A stretch of DNA of 64,000 nucleotides, taken from positions 64,001-128,000 of IMG/VR virus record IMGVR_UViG_3300025875_000002; one strand, written 5' to 3'. Positions 5,567 through 54,856 of the stretch are shown here, one piece after another. Under the pieces are notes generated by a model. That model searched no databases. It was not told where the DNA came from and was given only the letters and a program-made list of their open reading frames with translations. Origin of the DNA: a virus (Duplodnaviria > Heunggongvirae > Uroviricota > Caudoviricetes). Made by a program: the position numbers and the translations under genes. Within the stretch, counting starts at the first letter, position 1; each line of letters starts with the position of its first letter.

Positions 5567-6008
5567 TTGGTTGAATAATGCAAATAATGGTAGATTAAGC
5601 TTATTCAACCGATCAGTTAACAATAAAATAGAGGTAGGAAATATCCACAATTCGAACAAAATTGTGGAAAAACCTGTGGATAAACCCCTTTTTTGGTTGT
5701 TTTTGGGCCTAAAACCCTCAAAAAAGGCAAATTTCGGTTACATTTCTGTTTCCAGTTCCATTTTCGGTTTGGATTTCGATTTTGGAAACACAAAAAACCC
5801 GCGCTATGCAGGCTGGTTAAATTTTTAAGTTATTCAGCGTGGCTTTTGCTGATCTTTATTCAATACCCTTGTCAGGACTACGTCCCTATTCACTCTCTAC
5901 CTTAGCTAAAGCTTTCTGTCGGATTGGGTGAACGCATATTGACTTAATAAGAATAACATCTTTTAATTGATCTGTCAAATGATCTTGAAACCGGGGGTCT
6001 TGACATTC

Positions 6009-6116
6009 CCTATCTAAGTGACTACTCTCTAAAGGGAGGGCGAAAGGTAGACTATGATCTTGATAATCCCTATCTAGTTAGTTCCTATCTAGTGTTGACT
6101 CTCTCTCCTATCTAGT
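6009..6116 (+). repeat. direct repeats CCTATCTA(A)GT x4
   Basis: 6009-6019, 6069-6078, 6084-6093, 6107-6116; overlap promoters TTGACA 6000 and TTGACT-17-TAAGCT 6095-6123. Confidence 0.75.
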
Positions 6117-6162
6117 ATAAGCTATACCTAACACAAGCAACCGGGGCCGGGAGGCACAGAAG

Positions 6163-6303
6163 ATGATCAGAGTAATTGACAGGGTAGGGACTGCAACCCT
6201 TGCGCTGGTCGGATTTGGCTGGTATGCTTTTACTGGAATCGGAAGCGGTCTCCTAGTGGGATTGATCTTCCTGATTGCTTTCTTGATCTTGACGAACGAC
6301 TAA
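6163..6303 (+). CDS. 46-aa membrane protein
   Basis: GGAGG RBS; hydrophobic sequence; promoter at 6095. Confidence 0.55.
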   Translation: MIRVIDRVGTATLALVGFGWYAFTGIGSGLLVGLIFLIAFLILTND

Positions 6304-6624
6304 TCAAGATCAACTCGACTTTCAAGATCATCAAAATTAAATCATGGTGGCGCTTGCGCCACAGCGGCAGAGCCGCTAGACTATAACTAGGCAAACGGGC
6401 CGGTAGAAGAAGAGAAGAAACTCTTGACAAAAAGTCTTCAACGCTCTAAGGTAGATGTATAACTCTACCGAGACCGGCGCATGACCGATGATCTTGGCCG
6501 GGTCTACGATGGAAAGGTGAATGATCTTGATTCACTGATCACCAAGATCAACTCATAACTCCAAATTGCGGGTAGGCATCAATTGAAGTCTACCCTATCC
6601 ATGTGCTACATTGCAAGACCTTGG

Positions 6625-6672
6625 GCCGGGAAATCTTGGGAAATAAATCCTGAGATTTCCCGGCTTTTTCTT
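6625..6672. terminator. 12-bp hairpin with U-tract just downstream of promoter TTGAAG-18-TACATT (6583-6612)
   Basis: GCCGGGAAATCT 6625-6636 / AGATTTCCCGGC 6653-6664, then TTTTTCTT. Confidence 0.7.
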
Positions 6673-6849
6673 GCCCATCGTAACAGGGTCTGGTAAAATT
6701 AAAAAACTACCGTCAATTTTGAGACCATTCATAAATGCCCCATTCTTCAAGATCAATCAACGAAGGTTAGTTGCCAGCAACAATTAGTTATTGATCTTAG
6801 TTAGGTTAAGCTAAGTTGATCTTGAAACGCCGGCGTCGCGCTAGGTAAC

Positions 6850-7438
6850 GATCTTGATGACGGAAAGTAGTTTCAAGATTTTTGGATTTCCGGTACTGTT
6901 GATCTTCAAACGGACCTATACTTCTCACGTAAGCAAGACACGGACTAGCAGGAGGATAGACAATGGCTCACAGCCGGAACGATGGGTGCGCAGACGGCAC
7001 GGATGTAGTTTGGTATGAGCACGATGCAGCTCTCACAACCGGGGAAGCAATGGCCATCGCGGGGGAAGCGTGCGAGTCGCACCCAATCGACGATGCGGCT
7101 GCCCTGCTGTCGATCAGTGCCACCGACCGTGGGTGATCGCATTTGGTTCGCAGTCTGTAACGGTCTGGTTCCCGCGCTGGTCCTGTTGCTTCTGTTGATC
7201 ATCCTGGTCTGTTCGATCTTCTGATACATGGTCCCCCGGTACCGGTTAACGTTTAGTCGTCCGGTACCGGGGTTGAACCATGATCATTTGGCTTATCTGC
7301 CGGAGTCACTCTCCGTGTTGATCTTGAACAGAAAGTAGTTCAAGAAATTTCTGATTTTGGGTACTGTTGATCTTCGTTCGAACCGATACTTCTAATGTGA
7401 GCGAGAGACGCTCACCACTAGCAGTAGGAGAAATCATG
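6850..7438 (+). repeat. two ~115-bp imperfect direct repeats (6850-6965, 7320-7438) carrying operator-like IR, promoter and RBS
   Basis: Shared GATCTTGA..GAAAGTAGTT..CAAGA..GGTACTGTTGATCTTC..ATACTTCT..ACTAGCAG..AGGA. Confidence 0.8.
6963..7136 (+). CDS. hypothetical protein (57 aa)
   Basis: GGAGG RBS within repeat copy 1; hand-translated open frame. Confidence 0.55.
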   Translation: MAHSRNDGCADGTDVVWYEHDAALTTGEAMAIAGEACESHPIDDAAALLSISATDRG

Positions 7439-7702
7439 TACACCACCACCGCCGACCGTCTCGCTCTCGCCCGCCGGGACGCAGAGCACCTCGACACCTA
7501 CGGCACGCCCGTCCCGCGTGAGGCACGCCGTTTCGCTCTCCGCGCGGTTGCCGCTCTGGTGGGCATCCTCGCCGCTGTCTTCGTCTTCGCGCCGATGATC
7601 GGTCACGCGGAAGACGTGCGGCACTGTCAGACCGTGCACGCAGCCGGTCCGTCCGACGCTCCGGAAGCTCTCCGCTGTGAGTCGGTTCTGTTCGGAAAGT
7701 GA
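7436..7702 (+). CDS. single-TM hypothetical protein, GC-rich
   Basis: AGGAG RBS within repeat copy 2; TM segment FALRAVAALVGILAAVFVFAPM. Confidence 0.65.
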   Translation: MYTTTADRLALARRDAEHLDTYGTPVPREARRFALRAVAALVGILAAVFVFAPMIGHAEDVRHCQTVHAAGPSDAPEALRCESVLFGK

Positions 7703-7791
7703 AAAAAGGGGGCCGGTTGGACTTGACCCAACCGGCCCCCCGGACCGATACTGAGAACACAGCAAGCAACCCACTAGCAGGAGGAATGATC

Positions 7792-16608: not shown

Positions 16609-18927
16609 ATGCCATATTACTTCGTTACCGAGGAAGACCAAGCAGCAGTGCTGCCGGTTTCCCACCGGCCCATCAGCTCAGATTATATTCTAACAGTAGA
16701 GTTTACTAAGCGCTTTGACCGGTTTAATCCGCAAGTGCCTTTCTTGACTTTGCCAGTAACAGTTTCAGGCAATTACTTGAACATAACACTAACCCAGGCC
16801 CAGGTTAACAGCATCAGAACATCTTATTTTAAGATTAAGGCAGCGAAGCCCGGTACAGAGTTTTATGTAGATAATGGTAAAATATCTTATTCGCCAAAGA
16901 CAGCAACAGCACCAGTAGTTGATGTGGTAACCCAAGAAGAGTTTGATGCAGTTGAAATTCCAACAATAGCAGAGATCGAATCTATTGCCAAGGCAAAGGT
17001 TGCAGCTGACATTGAAGAGGTTTTGCCTTCTAGATTAAGTACAGTGGAACTAAGGGCGGCCTTTGTGCCGCTCCTCGGCCCCGCCAACGGCACGGCCGAC
17101 GCCGCCTGGATCAACGCCAAGATCGCGGGCGGCGGCTACTTCCGGGGCAACCCCGGCGCGACCTACCTGCTGGAGTCGCGCCTCATCGTGCCCTCCAACA
17201 CGCACATCGACTTCACCGGCTGCACCCTGCAGTTCAAGCAGACTCTCACCAGCGGAAACCTCTGCACCAACTACTCGCAGGCCAACCCGAAGTCCGTGGG
17301 CGGAGTAACGGCCAATGTCGGGGACACCACGTTCTACAGCGACACCCCGCTGAGGGGCCAGGTGTCGGTCGGCGACAACATCGTCATCTTCCAGGCGGGT
17401 GTCGACGGCATCCCATTGACCGCGATCGTCACCGCAGTGAACAGCTCCACGTCGGTCACCATCGACCGGCCCATCGCCAAAGCCGTTACCAACACCACCG
17501 CGCGGGTTTACGGCACCGACCACGACATCACCATCCAGGGCGGCGTCTGGAACCGGGGCGCGGTCGGCGGTTACGGAGCCGTCGAAGGCCACGGCCTCAA
17601 CTTCCGGTTCGTCCAGCGGCTGCACGTCGACATCGACGAGTACCACGCGACCGCCGGCACCTACGCCCTCTGCGTCGCCGCCGTCTGGGACTACAAGATC
17701 GGCTGCGGGTGGATGGACAACAAGTCTCTCGACGGCCTGCACGTCATGGGACCCGCCTACGACGGGGAGTGCACTCGCCTCGCCGGGAACACCAACGATG
17801 ACTCCCTCGCGTTGCTCTGCGCCGACGCCATCGGCCCCCTGACCGACGTGGCCGGAGACATCATCGGCTTCACCTGGAACATCGTCCGCACCCAGGCCGA
17901 ACAGTCCATCGTGAAGATCATGTCCGGTCCGGGGCTGACCATCGGCGGCATCCGGGGTGGCATCACGCAGGGCACCTACAAGCTGCGTCACGCCGTCTGG
18001 ATCGGCGAAGACCTCGCCAACCCCGGCGTGATGAAGGGCAACTGGGGCACCATCGACGTCGGCATCATCGATGCCGCACCCGTGGCCGGCTTCAACCAGT
18101 GGGCGCCCCTTGGCCTGCATAGCCCCAACGCCGGGCTGATCAAGGCCACCATCCGCTCCAAGTCCCCGCTCCCCCGCGCCCTGGTCGACACTGCCGGCTC
18201 CACCCCGGTCGTCATCCGCCGCCTCGATCTGGAACTCGACGCGCTCGGCCCGGTCCCGATCCTGCTGGCCACCAACACCAACATGACCATCGACTCGATG
18301 GACGTCCGGGGCCGCTACGACCAAGTGTCCGGCAGCCTGTCTCCGATGCAGATCAGCGCAGGAGCCTGGAACGACATCGACTCCTCCAAGCTGACCTCCT
18401 CGCTGACAGCCCGCACCCTCATCGCGGCCAGCGGCACCGGCAGCTACACCGAGCGCAGCCCCAAGCTGATCATCCCCTTCGTCGGGATGCTCAACCCCAA
18501 CGCCGGGGCGTGGAGCGCCGCCAACCGGGCCGTGTTCGACAGGTTCACGCTCATCACGTCAACCACCCTGCGGTACGTCAACTGGATCGTCAGCACCCAG
18601 TCCGGCAACGTCCAGGTCGGCATCGTCAAGCTGGCCGGCGTCGGCCACGGTGACTACACCGTGGTCATGGACTCCGGTGTGATCCCCTGCCCCGCCGCAG
18701 GGAACATCTGCACCGATCTGGGGGCCAAGACCCTGCCCCCTGGTGACTACGCGGTGTTCCTGTGGGCCGACAACGCCACATTCCAGACCCGTGCCGCTGG
18801 GGCATCCGGGCTGGCCGCGCTGCGGGTGTCAGGCAGCCTCGACGGGCTTGGCACGGGCGTCCAGGCCACCGGGAACTTCTCCTACGGAACCCTGTACTTC
18901 GCCGCAACCGTCGAGGCTGACGTCTGA
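16609..18927 (+). CDS. virion-associated protein: phage N-terminal anchor fused to GC-rich pectin-lyase-like beta-helix/tailspike domain
   Basis: Abrupt AT-to-GC shift at ~17060; beta-helix-type segments (LDGLHVMG, NTNDDSLAL); leaderless promoter 16575-16602. Confidence 0.65.
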   Translation: MPYYFVTEEDQAAVLPVSHRPISSDYILTVEFTKRFDRFNPQVPFLTLPVTVSGNYLNITLTQAQVNSIRTSYFKIKAAKPGTEFYVDNGKISYSPKTATAPVVDVVTQEEFDAVEIPTIAEIESIAKAKVAADIEEVLPSRLSTVELRAAFVPLLGPANGTADAAWINAKIAGGGYFRGNPGATYLLESRLIVPSNTHIDFTGCTLQFKQTLTSGNLCTNYSQANPKSVGGVTANVGDTTFYSDTPLRGQVSVGDNIVIFQAGVDGIPLTAIVTAVNSSTSVTIDRPIAKAVTNTTARVYGTDHDITIQGGVWNRGAVGGYGAVEGHGLNFRFVQRLHVDIDEYHATAGTYALCVAAVWDYKIGCGWMDNKSLDGLHVMGPAYDGECTRLAGNTNDDSLALLCADAIGPLTDVAGDIIGFTWNIVRTQAEQSIVKIMSGPGLTIGGIRGGITQGTYKLRHAVWIGEDLANPGVMKGNWGTIDVGIIDAAPVAGFNQWAPLGLHSPNAGLIKATIRSKSPLPRALVDTAGSTPVVIRRLDLELDALGPVPILLATNTNMTIDSMDVRGRYDQVSGSLSPMQISAGAWNDIDSSKLTSSLTARTLIAASGTGSYTERSPKLIIPFVGMLNPNAGAWSAANRAVFDRFTLITSTTLRYVNWIVSTQSGNVQVGIVKLAGVGHGDYTVVMDSGVIPCPAAGNICTDLGAKTLPPGDYAVFLWADNATFQTRAAGASGLAALRVSGSLDGLGTGVQATGNFSYGTLYFAATVEADV
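17046..17065 (+). repeat. left junction site L, GGAACTAAGGGCGGCCTTTG (copy 1)
   Basis: 20/20 identical to 26796-26815; sits at the composition boundary. Confidence 0.9.
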
Positions 18928-19193
18928 CCCATCGGTGATTGGCTTGAAGCAGACCGCTCGGCGAGCGACCCATCCAACCGACCCTTCCAAGTCAAGGCAG
19001 GCCGTTCGACCAAGAACCAACTCAGGCACGCCGCGGTGATGGTGGCGGGAAAGGACAACAGGGCGACAGCTGTCCGGTCGTGAATTCCTACGCTTAGCCA
19101 GTCGCGTGAGCCGCTCTTTCCGCGACTCCGTGGCTGGCCCCATGCCGTGGAGTTTACGCAGTCGATCCGGAGCAACTCGCCCGGCGGGTGCGT

Positions 19194-19210
19194 CTAAGGG
19201 GGCGCTTCGT
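19194..19210 (+). repeat. right junction site R, CTAAGGGGGCGCTTCGT (copy 1)
   Basis: 17/17 identical to 28071-28087; GC-rich tract ends here. Confidence 0.9.
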
Positions 19211-19217
19211 ACTAGTC

Positions 19218-19250
19218 AACAAAGCACACCGTTCTAAGGTGTGCTTTGTT
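19218..19250. terminator. intrinsic terminator
   Basis: AACAAAGCACACC-loop-GGTGTGCTTTGTT followed by ATTTT. Confidence 0.8.
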
Positions 19251-26094: not shown

Positions 26095-26421
26095 AGGTGA
26101 ATACATCATTAGTAGAAAGACTCTAGGGGAAAGACTCTTGGAGTCAGCAACTCAGGCGGTTGATTCAGACGAGCCAAACAAGTCATGCATTAGGGGACCA
26201 CATGAGACCACAGAAGAAGAGTAACCTGCCCGGTTGCATAAGGAGGAAAAATGCTAAAACTACTCTTATTAATCATACTAGTAGTACTGTTAACCGCACT
26301 GATCGCTAGTGCTTACACTGGACTACAATCCTGGAGAAGAAGTAATAGGTACGTTGATCCAGAGAAGAGAAATACAAACCTAAAGTTATGACTTTGGAGA
26401 AAAATGAGGTAAAATATAACC

Positions 26422-28065
26422 ATGTCAACAGCATCATTTACAACCCGCGCCGGTAGCCCGGCCGGTACAGTAGCATACGTCGCCCCGGTAGCAGGAGCCA
26501 CTTACACGGTAGAGTTTTCAAGAAACAGTTCATTCAGAACTATTCTTATTACAAAGCCTGTAATTCTAAATGATAATGCCGTAACCATTTCAATGACAGC
26601 AGCAGAGGTCGACCAGCTAGGAGACGGTTATTACAGAGTTAGAGCTACCAAGGACGATAGAGTTTGGACTCTTGTAGATGGATCAATTGATTATATTCCT
26701 AAGGCTAAGACTACTGGATTAACTGTTGCTGATGTTGTTTCAGACCCTGTTTTTATTGACGCAATTCCAACTGCTGCTGAATTAGCTGCATCACCGGAAC
26801 TAAGGGCGGCCTTTGCGCCACGCGGCCTGCGCAACCTGCCAGGCATGTACCCGCTGGGAGCACGCGCCGGAATCGGCCAGGGCTTCATCGGGACCATCAG
26901 CGGCCAGGACAATCGCTACCGCGTCACTGTCCCGTTCCAGACCAACGAGGTCCGCCTCGTGTACACCAACTGGATCGGCCCTGGCACCGCCGAACGCGAC
27001 GGCACCGCCGACCTCGTCGTGCGCGCCGGGATCGAGATGCCCGACGGCAGCTTCCGGGCGGTCTACTTCGCCGGGCAGAGGGACGTGCGCATCGGCATCG
27101 GCGGGTCTGCTGTCAGCGACCCCGTGGCCGTCGAGCACGCCGGGCCAACCGACCCCAGCCCGTTCCTCTACGTGCGCACCAAGGTCACGGCCTACACCGC
27201 CGGCACGTCGACCCTCGCGCCCGGATCGATCCCGCAGGGTCCACTCATGACCGCCACAGGCGAAGGCACCGACTCCGACCCGGCTGGCGATGTCACCACC
27301 TCCGGCACCGTCGGATCGACGTACAACTTCATGTACGTCCCCGCCGTCGTTGCGGGCAACTGCACTGACGCCGCCCCGATCATCGCCCTGATCGGGGACA
27401 GCATCACCCTGGGCAAGAACGACGGACCCGACAACTACGGCTGGGGCGCCCGTGCCGCCGAAGCTGCTCGACTGCCCTACCTGAAGCTTGCCGAGGGCGG
27501 GGTTCAGGCGCAGTACGTCTCGGTGCCCAACGGCCACGCGCGCACGTTCGCACTGGGCACCGGAGCTACCGACGCGCTGGTCATGCTCGGGACCAATGAC
27601 CTGGGAACGGCCACAGTTTCCGGGGGAGTCATCACCGCCGTGCAGATCTACCTGTACCGGATCTGGCTCGCGTGGTCGCGTCGCGGCGCCCGGGTTCGCG
27701 CCTGCACCCTGGTGCCCCGCGCAACGTCAACCGACTCCTGGGCGACCCTGGGCAACCAGACGCCCATGGCCAGCAATCCGGCTCGCATCATCATCAACGA
27801 CTGGATTCGCGCCGGTGCCCCGCTCGACGCCGCGACCAAGGCACCGGCTGCGGTCGGTGCGCCCGGCTCCATTGTCGCGGGGCAGACCGGACACCCGCTG
27901 GTCGGCTACATCGACACCGCAGATGCTGTCGAATCGGCCCGCAACTCGGGGCTGTGGATCGTCAACGGGTCGGCCAACTACGCGACCTCCGACGGAACCC
28001 ACCCCGGAGGTACGGCCTACGGCCTCATCGCGGCCAAGGTGCCCACTGCGGCGTTCACCGCCTGA
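26422..28065 (+). CDS. virion-associated protein: phage anchor domain fused to GC-rich SGNH/GDSL hydrolase
   Basis: GDSIT, LGTND, DGTHP catalytic blocks; N-terminus paralogous to 16609; AT-to-GC shift at ~26810. Confidence 0.75.
   Translation: MSTASFTTRAGSPAGTVAYVAPVAGATYTVEFSRNSSFRTILITKPVILNDNAVTISMTAAEVDQLGDGYYRVRATKDDRVWTLVDGSIDYIPKAKTTGLTVADVVSDPVFIDAIPTAAELAASPELRAAFAPRGLRNLPGMYPLGARAGIGQGFIGTISGQDNRYRVTVPFQTNEVRLVYTNWIGPGTAERDGTADLVVRAGIEMPDGSFRAVYFAGQRDVRIGIGGSAVSDPVAVEHAGPTDPSPFLYVRTKVTAYTAGTSTLAPGSIPQGPLMTATGEGTDSDPAGDVTTSGTVGSTYNFMYVPAVVAGNCTDAAPIIALIGDSITLGKNDGPDNYGWGARAAEAARLPYLKLAEGGVQAQYVSVPNGHARTFALGTGATDALVMLGTNDLGTATVSGGVITAVQIYLYRIWLAWSRRGARVRACTLVPRATSTDSWATLGNQTPMASNPARIIINDWIRAGAPLDAATKAPAAVGAPGSIVAGQTGHPLVGYIDTADAVESARNSGLWIVNGSANYATSDGTHPGGTAYGLIAAKVPTAAFTA
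26796..26815 (+). repeat. left junction site L (copy 2)
   Basis: Identical to 17046-17065. Confidence 0.9.
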
Positions 28066-28070
28066 CGGCA

Positions 28071-28087
28071 CTAAGGGGGCGCTTCGT
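28071..28087 (+). repeat. right junction site R (copy 2)
   Basis: Identical to 19194-19210; 5 nt after the payload stop codon. Confidence 0.9.
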
Positions 28088-28204
28088 GCCAGCGCGTGAC
28101 ACGGCGACACGGGGAGCTGTTGCCCAGCCTTATCTAACTGATGAAATGGTGTTTTGATACCATTAAATTTTGCATTAAGAAAAGAACAATGGTATATTAC
28201 AAAT

Positions 28205-54787: not shown

Positions 54788-54856
54788 ACTGTAGGTTGTC
54801 ATGACAGGGGGGCGCTTTGTGCGTCCCTTTTGTCGTCTAAGTAGAGAGGAAGAATT

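Follow-up and report, generated by a model that had tools for sequence, protein, structure and literature searches.

A non-coding look-alike of an in-frame junction motif past two chimeric genes of a phage genome

The window, that is the whole stretch of 64,000 nucleotides analysed here, comprises bases 64001-128000 of a virus record of 133,294 bases that is rated complete by CheckV. At the DNA level, this phage is distantly related (67-74% identity) to large Streptomyces phages of about 47-50% GC, belonging to clusters BE/BK (Stanwilliamsviridae). Two islands of 67-70% GC, at 17050-19213 and 26800-28130, stand out against a background of about 46% GC, and each of them starts inside a gene.

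The second island belongs to ORF2 (26422..28065, on the + strand, as are the other parts of the two cassettes and the terminators described below), a gene of 547 aa that appears to be chimeric on the basis of the ORF list, the GC profile and weak Pfam GDSL matches: a low-GC Ig-like anchor is joined to a 69% GC module of the SGNH/GDSL esterase type. A promoter-like site (26388..26415), predicted purely from a consensus match (9/12 in a scan), lies 5' of the gene. The anchor part (26422..26799) is followed by the L2 box (26800..26819), which constitutes the in-frame junction ELRAAFAP and at which the GC content rises from about 45% to about 69%. A second box, R2, is situated past the gene; its extended form occupies 28067..28094, and its core (28071-28090) begins 5 nt past the ORF2 stop. 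Next come 40 GC-rich nucleotides (28091..28130), the beginning of which coincides with the last 4 nt of the extended R2 box and which are non-coding and without relatives, and finally an AT-rich tail of 36 nt (28131..28166) with a weak 8-bp hairpin (28145-28164) that is not significant (fold z -1.4).

Together, these elements make up a unit (26392..28166) of which the limits are given by the related phages. In L015, the closest relative with data here (its protease is 88% identical), nothing separates the stop of a small membrane-protein gene from the protease promoter, and the window has an extra 1.78 kb (26392-28166) at this position, with the promoter-like site, ORF2, R2, the 40 nt and the AT-rich tail. 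In L013-L017, homology to the window is lost at about 26392 and regained at 28165-28167. Since the relatives are devoid of the whole 1.78-kb unit, the low-GC anchor, the GC-rich insert and R2 are to be regarded as one accessory unit, within which GC-rich DNA begins at the L box and continues, 40 nt beyond R2, to about 28130. L015 also has the conserved small membrane-protein gene (26252-26391; about 46 aa), the stop of which forms the left edge of the unit.

Cassette 1 has the same build: a promoter-like site, an anchor, an L box, a module, a spacer, an R box and a terminator. Its gene, ORF1 (16609..18927; 772 aa), is a sister chimeric gene in which a paralogous anchor is joined, at the L1 box (17050..17069, ELRAAFVP), to a module of 67% GC. 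A GC-rich spacer (18928..19193) extends from the ORF1 stop to the R1 box (19194..19213), where the GC-rich DNA stops, and 5 nt past R1 an intrinsic terminator is predicted (19218..19250), with an AT-rich stem of 13 bp and a T run (fold z -5.5). A residual codon periodicity is discernible in the spacer when it is read in the frame of ORF1, with a third-position GC of 0.73 and a coding score 30-40 bits above that in the other + frames. ORF1 may have been cut short by a premature stop relative to the donor gene. The cassette occupies a variable slot, with the ribonucleotide reductase gene downstream of it; in the relatives L021 and L070, this slot contains homologous anchors with other C-termini at native GC content.

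The N-terminal parts of ORF1 and ORF2 are paralogous, with 33% identity over about 130 residues, while their GC-rich C-terminal parts are unrelated. A profile of both N-terminal parts retrieves 60 cluster representatives of 97-946 aa, in which the domain is always N-terminal and the C-termini vary widely, from collagen-like repeats, esterases and beta-helix-like parts to almost nothing. The latter, short-form members end 4-35 residues past the motif (P0034, P0051, L011 gene B and L111). No relatives of the anchor are found among phage isolates by tblastn. According to an AlphaFold model of the ORF2 N-terminus (mean pLDDT 88), an Ig-like beta-sandwich (residues 1-92) is followed by a linker and a short helix bearing the junction motif. 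Foldseek searches with this model return Ig-like domains, some of which stem from phage baseplate and tail-tip proteins; fold and gene position suggest that the Ig-like domain anchors the protein to the virion. In about two dozen members of the family, the anchor ends in L-[RKNTED]-x-x-[FY], with free choice at the x positions (AA, AN, NS, SK, TN, EV, DV and others).

The ORF2 module is a putative SGNH/GDSL-type esterase. Its Pfam GDSL scores remain under the curated cut-offs (21.1 versus 23.6 bits), and relatives at 32-37% identity bear PF13472, with the GDSI, G.ND and DG.HP columns invariant in the alignment. Neither module has close relatives in IMG/VR, and the ORF2 module was not found in 401 Streptomyces genomes (E<=1e-10). 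The chimeric genes are known from a single assembly, each chimeric protein from one contig.

The L box (CTAAGGGCGGCCTTTGYGCC) is found at 17050 and 26800, where it is read in frame as L-R-A-A-F, and the R box (CTAAGGGGGCGCTTCGTRCY) at 19194 and 28071. A previous, sequence-only reading of this DNA had described R as a degenerate copy of L with 16/20 matching positions, and this holds: R2 (28071-28090) differs from L1 (17050-17069) at 4/20. A degenerate pattern for L and R occurs at exactly four sites in the window (17050, 19194, 26800 and 28071), versus 0.04 expected from shuffles, and the 133-kb genome as a whole has no fifth one. The four sites all have the same orientation (+ strand); L and R are thus direct repeats, with an identical 7-nt core (CTAAGGG) and differing arms. 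L2 and R2 are alike over 31 nt (25/31, with one gap), a score that is reached by 0/1000 shuffles of the 400 nt past the stop; the likeness of L1 and R1 alone is not significant in the same test (160/1000). Between R1 and R2, 17 nt are identical and three of the five bases that follow agree; the flanks are otherwise unrelated. Given the rarity of the pattern, the L2-R2 likeness over 31 nt and the identity of R1 and R2 over 17 nt, R is not a chance match; it is a true relative of L, a non-coding look-alike of the junction motif. The L box also has a dyad symmetry of 10/12, as read from its letters.

Read in the L frame, R2 gives LRGRFVPAR, as in the LRGRFVP reading noted earlier, and R1 gives LRGRFVLVN; the family motif L-R-x-x-F-V-P is kept in R2. 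Of the four differences between R2 and L, three concern the two residues at which the motif varies (AA -> GR), and the fourth is synonymous (TTT -> TTC). The next two codons, for Val and Pro, are kept in R2 as well, one of them with a synonymous change. Because its differences from L are structured by codons, R looks like a junction that was once coding. In both cassettes, L and R are separated by a distance that is 2 mod 3 (2144 nt in cassette 1, 1271 nt in cassette 2; the probability that both are so by chance is about 1 in 9), which places the TAA inside R in frame with the module ORF. For ORF2, the TAA of R2 is a tandem stop two codons past the TGA, which is not the case for the box of contig L008 described below.

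Exact scans of IMG/VR reveal 16-21 nt identical to L, in frame at an anchor/module border, in the 67-68% GC contigs L009, L011 and L012, and L1 has a 21-nt word in common with high-GC contigs. In L011 and L012, two paralogous genes each contain the same L box, and in L009 it follows a different N-terminal domain. The copies in the high-GC contigs retain codons that are rare for such a GC content. These comparisons indicate that L-type boxes act as functional junctions in at least three unrelated phage lineages, so that a conserved junction DNA motif common to unrelated phages, as in modules of the type described by Pas et al. (2023), is present here. L011, like L012, L108 and L109, encodes two paralogues with a common 91-aa N-terminal domain and the exact L box; of the L011 paralogues, one, a short form of 131 aa, has a separate SGNH gene behind it, and the other is fused to an SGNH module. 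The same contig has a hairpin element (GAGGGGCCGCTT) in three copies, each 3' of a different gene, and encodes a 586-aa portal/MuF-like protein (5988-7748, - strand) with, by eye, an apparent Hint/intein-like insert, a Cys-led block ending in ...VVSNC.

Exact 17-mer scans for R yield 2 matches in IMG/VR, 17 in metagenome contigs and 10 in GTDB. With the exception of L008 (identical to contig L095), these matches have unrelated surroundings (Slackia, Pseudomonas and others) and are in line with chance. A match in Streptomyces prunicolor shares four extra bases but is not in a phage context. The box in L008 (8407-8434) matches R2 at 27/28 positions, including GGCA upstream and CCAGCG downstream, and is the only true homologue of R in these scans. 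L008 is an unrelated phage contig of 72% GC, in which the R-type box lies 240 nt past the stop of a 610-aa esterase-type gene with an unrelated module; at its own junction, this gene has V-Q-R-A-A-F and an L-like core. In the L frame, no more than about 40 codons are open through the L008 box, and this box, like R1 and R2, is a post-gene, non-functional copy. As the homologue in L008 is again situated past a gene and is conserved with both flanks, R is more likely a conserved unit of its own than a local relic. A downstream non-coding motif that is common to unrelated phages, the second feature of modules of the Pas et al. (2023) type, is thereby found as well, with three R-type instances known. 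L008 and three relatives of the phage studied here (L013, L019 and L070) come from one metagenome (3300025875), so that possible donors and recipients co-occur; for L008 itself, only 43%-identical contigs were found as relatives. Neither an L-type box at a right border nor an R-type box as a functional junction is seen in the 60 representatives or in exact scans of three DNA collections.

High-GC contigs contain, 3' of several genes, G-rich R-like elements of the GAGGGGCCGC type, often in hairpins. The R-like elements after genes in L011, L110, L112 and L009 were considered as lineage-specific copies of L and rejected, for they belong to repeated GC hairpin families and are individually not significant. 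For these two reasons, GAGGGGCCGC-type elements are not counted as R homologues or as evidence either way.

The 40 nt following R2 had been proposed to be a remnant of a displaced cassette. Its description is borne out: some 40 nt of about 70% GC (28091-28130) separate R2 from AT-rich sequence, cassette 1 returns at once to AT-rich DNA with the strong terminator directly past R1, and translation of the 40 nt in the L frame does yield the peptide that had been given (ARDTATRGAVAQP). The interpretation as a stump is not, since neither a coding signal nor a DNA or peptide relative nor a protein with an LRGRF junction is found. The coding log-likelihood of the 40 nt under the codon usage of the modules is negative in all six frames, and the third-position GC in the L frame is 0.50, versus 0.85-0.91 in the modules. 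No DNA relatives exist in 50,697 phage records, and the segments 28060-28135 and 18928-19215 have chance-level matches only in phage isolates. A tblastn search with the remnant peptide against phage records, as had been suggested, gives E values of 2 or more and thus no relative, and a word-based search of 5.8 billion proteins finds no peptide relatives, near-length or longer. The L-frame ORF that begins in R2 has 28 codons and ends at a stop at 28155-28157, in the tail of the unit; past R, 22-28 codons are open. No notable or stable fold is present in the 40 nt, which contain a tandem 8-mer (GACACGGC GACACGGG) at 28099-28116. The possibility that they are a collapsed C-terminal domain of the short form was tried and dropped: a profile of five tails scores 0.6 bits against the L-frame peptides of R2 and R1, and 959/5000 shuffles do as well.

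Genes with the junction E-L-R-G-R-F-V, which had been expected among relatives, are encountered neither in the 60 family representatives nor when contigs of IMG/VR, metagenomes and GTDB are scanned for exact 17-mers, and word-based searches of 5.8 billion proteins with L-frame peptides, short or long, bring up no protein with an L-R-G-R-F junction. The sequence-only reading had named two results that would speak against a displaced junction, the lack of any gene with an LRGRFV junction and the membership of R in a terminator family; the former was obtained, the latter was not. R has no significant hairpin (R1 z -1.4 and R2 z +0.7 versus shuffles), and Rfam has nothing at R. R1, R2 and the L008 box are all without a partner arm, yet they are alike beyond the would-be loop. 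R is not an intrinsic terminator; the predicted terminator of cassette 1 is the separate structure at 19218-19250. The stem at 54805-54836, which had been noted as similar, is a genuine phage terminator that resembles the R core in its 5' arm and loop (14/16 positions), but the genome has no further R-like site, and hence there is no terminator family here.

Neither a tyrosine recombinase (PF00589) nor a serine recombinase (PF00239) gives a match in the complete genome, and RecT, ERF and YqaJ are not found in it. A RecA-family gene, outside the window at genome position 132114-132851 (PF00154, 108 bits), is the only recombination protein found among those searched. An imperfect inverted repeat or hairpin of the attC type is absent at R, and three DNA collections contain neither an empty site (the left flank of L, the core and the right flank of R) nor a circle junction.

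Both cassettes start at an L-type box (ELRAAF, the end of the Ig-like anchor), and both bear the identical 17-nt R core past the module stop. In the explanation that we tentatively prefer, R is an L-derived right-border box that provides short homology for module exchange, and the 40 nt are hitchhiking donor flank. L and R would serve, or would have served, as left and right short-homology arms for the exchange of modules between phages. Since R resembles L, a module flanked by both could enter an anchor gene that has one box, and it could be imagined that any single-box anchor gene would be open to insertion through general homologous recombination, with the phage RecA-family gene and the functions of the host itself as machinery and no dedicated site-specific recombinase. 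R would resemble L because a junction box is its ancestor. Since GC-rich DNA continues past R2 in cassette 2, the crossover there was not at R2 itself; the right crossover would have occurred about 40 nt further on, and for that reason the 40 GC-rich bases would be carried-along donor flank and not what is left of an older module. The recombination step as such is inferred. The unit of 1.78 kb as a whole, which brings its own promoter and tail, would be an accessory gene without a counterpart in the closest relative. The border-box explanation is supported by cassette 1, where the GC-rich DNA ends exactly at R1. Against it stands that no relative was found with the same anchor and, between an L and an R box, a different module, although homologous anchors do carry many C-termini. 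Moreover, 17-28 nt is short for RecA-type recombination, R-type boxes number only three so far, and the chimeric genes come from one assembly.

The codon-structured differences between L and R agree at least as well with a junction that was once translated as with an arm acting purely at the DNA level. This is the strength of the view put forward at first, in which R is the ancestral junction of the anchor, from an "empty socket" short form or an older module, that was pushed downstream by an insertion at CTAAGGG and is still followed by the old tail or stump. Of that proposal, the relation of R to L and the codon pattern remain and the cassette stump falls; the pushing event itself is not traceable at this locus, as the closest relative lacks the entire gene unit. 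We consider it rather unlikely. R keeps the L-R-x-x-F-V-P motif with changes mainly in its variable residues, "empty" short-form anchors do exist in the family, and the 28-codon L-frame ORF of R2 stops in the tail of the unit; but there is no LRGRF junction in representatives, proteins (word-based) or DNA collections (exact), the 40 nt have neither an L-frame coding signal nor a likeness to short-form tails, R1 equals R2 although their anchors are only 33% identical, and the R-type box of L008 with both its flanks also lies past a gene, with at most about 40 open codons. An element past gene A of L011 matches the box of the short paralogue gene B and its continuation at 19/21 positions (16/2000 shuffles), but this match is equalled by other windows of that locus and the element belongs to a repeated GC hairpin family. 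It is quite improbable that R is instead a vestigial piece of a donor 3' UTR or terminator carried along with the modules, in which case its likeness to L would be partly compositional (G-rich, then CTT/TTT). The GAGGGGCCGC-type elements after several genes of high-GC contigs, often hairpins, the phage terminator matching the R core at 14/16 and the coliphage downstream motif, a predicted terminator (PMC10408124), could be quoted for such an origin. It leaves unexplained why three boxes without a partner arm and, for R1 and R2, with no significant fold agree past the would-be loop, why 0/1000 shuffles match the 31-nt likeness of L2 and R2, and why CTAAGGG, unnecessary for a terminator, is shared.

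A dedicated system, comparable to an integron or shufflon, might insert circular cassettes at the 7-bp CTAAGGG, with L and R as attL/attR-like products. The identical core with differing arms in direct repeats, the directional L and R classes kept in two unrelated phages and the dyad symmetry of L are all in line with this idea, which is nevertheless very unlikely in view of a complete genome without tyrosine or serine recombinases, the failure to find an empty site or circle junction in any collection scanned, an R box without an attC-like hairpin, the single cassette per anchor and the GC-rich DNA extending 40 nt beyond R2. In a broader form, to which we likewise give a slim chance, L and R are a directional pair of 20-28-nt border sites at which a dedicated activity, encoded by phage, host or donor, inserts enzyme modules in frame behind Ig-like anchors across unrelated actinophages; if true, this would amount to an integron-like capture of domains acting inside genes. 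Finally, the GC-rich segments could be assembly chimeras joined at shared k-mers, as each chimeric protein is known from one contig only and the 21-nt word of L1 is common with high-GC contigs. This is extremely unlikely: one native box would need long words matching both L-type and R-type boxes, which differ at 4/20, four such joins would be required in one contig, and the modules have no close match in any collection.

Phages alter what they degrade or bind by exchanging enzyme or receptor-binding modules, and it is only partly understood how clean in-frame swaps arise between unrelated phages without flanking homology. If the L/R pair is a set of portable homology arms, a module could enter any gene with a single junction box. 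This would explain the uptake of two 69%-GC modules by a 46%-GC phage and would provide a simple rule predicting the sites of module exchange, testable in laboratory Streptomyces phages. Should R be no more than a relic, it would still mark the borders of exchange cleanly.

Several known systems share part of this arrangement. Short conserved sequences in and around the distal tail fibre adhesin gene of T-even phages are said, in work of Tetart, Desplats and Krisch from 1998 (J Mol Biol 282:543, cited in PMC10408124), to permit swaps of specificity segments; these motifs are reportedly coding and inside the fibre gene, with no post-gene copy of the junction described. Orphan C-terminal modules of Rhs/CdiA polymorphic toxins are reminiscent of the present case in that a conserved motif lies at the border between the constant and the variable C-terminal part and displaced junction copies can sit downstream. 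Unlike in Rhs/CdiA, there is no immunity gene here, and the orphan module that had been imagined past R is not there: the 22-28 open codons have no coding signal and no homologue. Integron cassettes (attI/attC) are likewise single-gene units bounded by related short direct sites, but the likeness to an integron array drawn earlier does not extend further, as there is no integrase, attC hairpin or array and the insertion is in frame within a gene. Invertible tail-fibre switches, such as Mu Gin and the shufflon, differ by their inverted sites and their serine or tyrosine recombinases, neither of which is present here. The closest parallel is offered by lytic coliphages, where a junction motif and a 20-nt downstream motif flank the receptor-binding domains of tailspikes across genera; both motifs are common to unrelated phages and have been put forward as hot spots of recombination through which modules are exchanged (Pas et al. 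2023, Virol J 20:174, PMC10408124). These tailspikes resemble the present case in having one DNA motif where anchor and enzyme meet and another in non-coding DNA past the gene. In contrast to them, the hosts here are actinobacterial, modules of about 69% GC are found in a recipient of 46% GC, and the downstream motif is a 16/20 direct look-alike of the junction and not a predicted terminator. The phenomenon seems to be a variant of the known module exchange guided by border motifs, unusual in that the in-frame junction has a direct-repeat look-alike as its right-hand counterpart.
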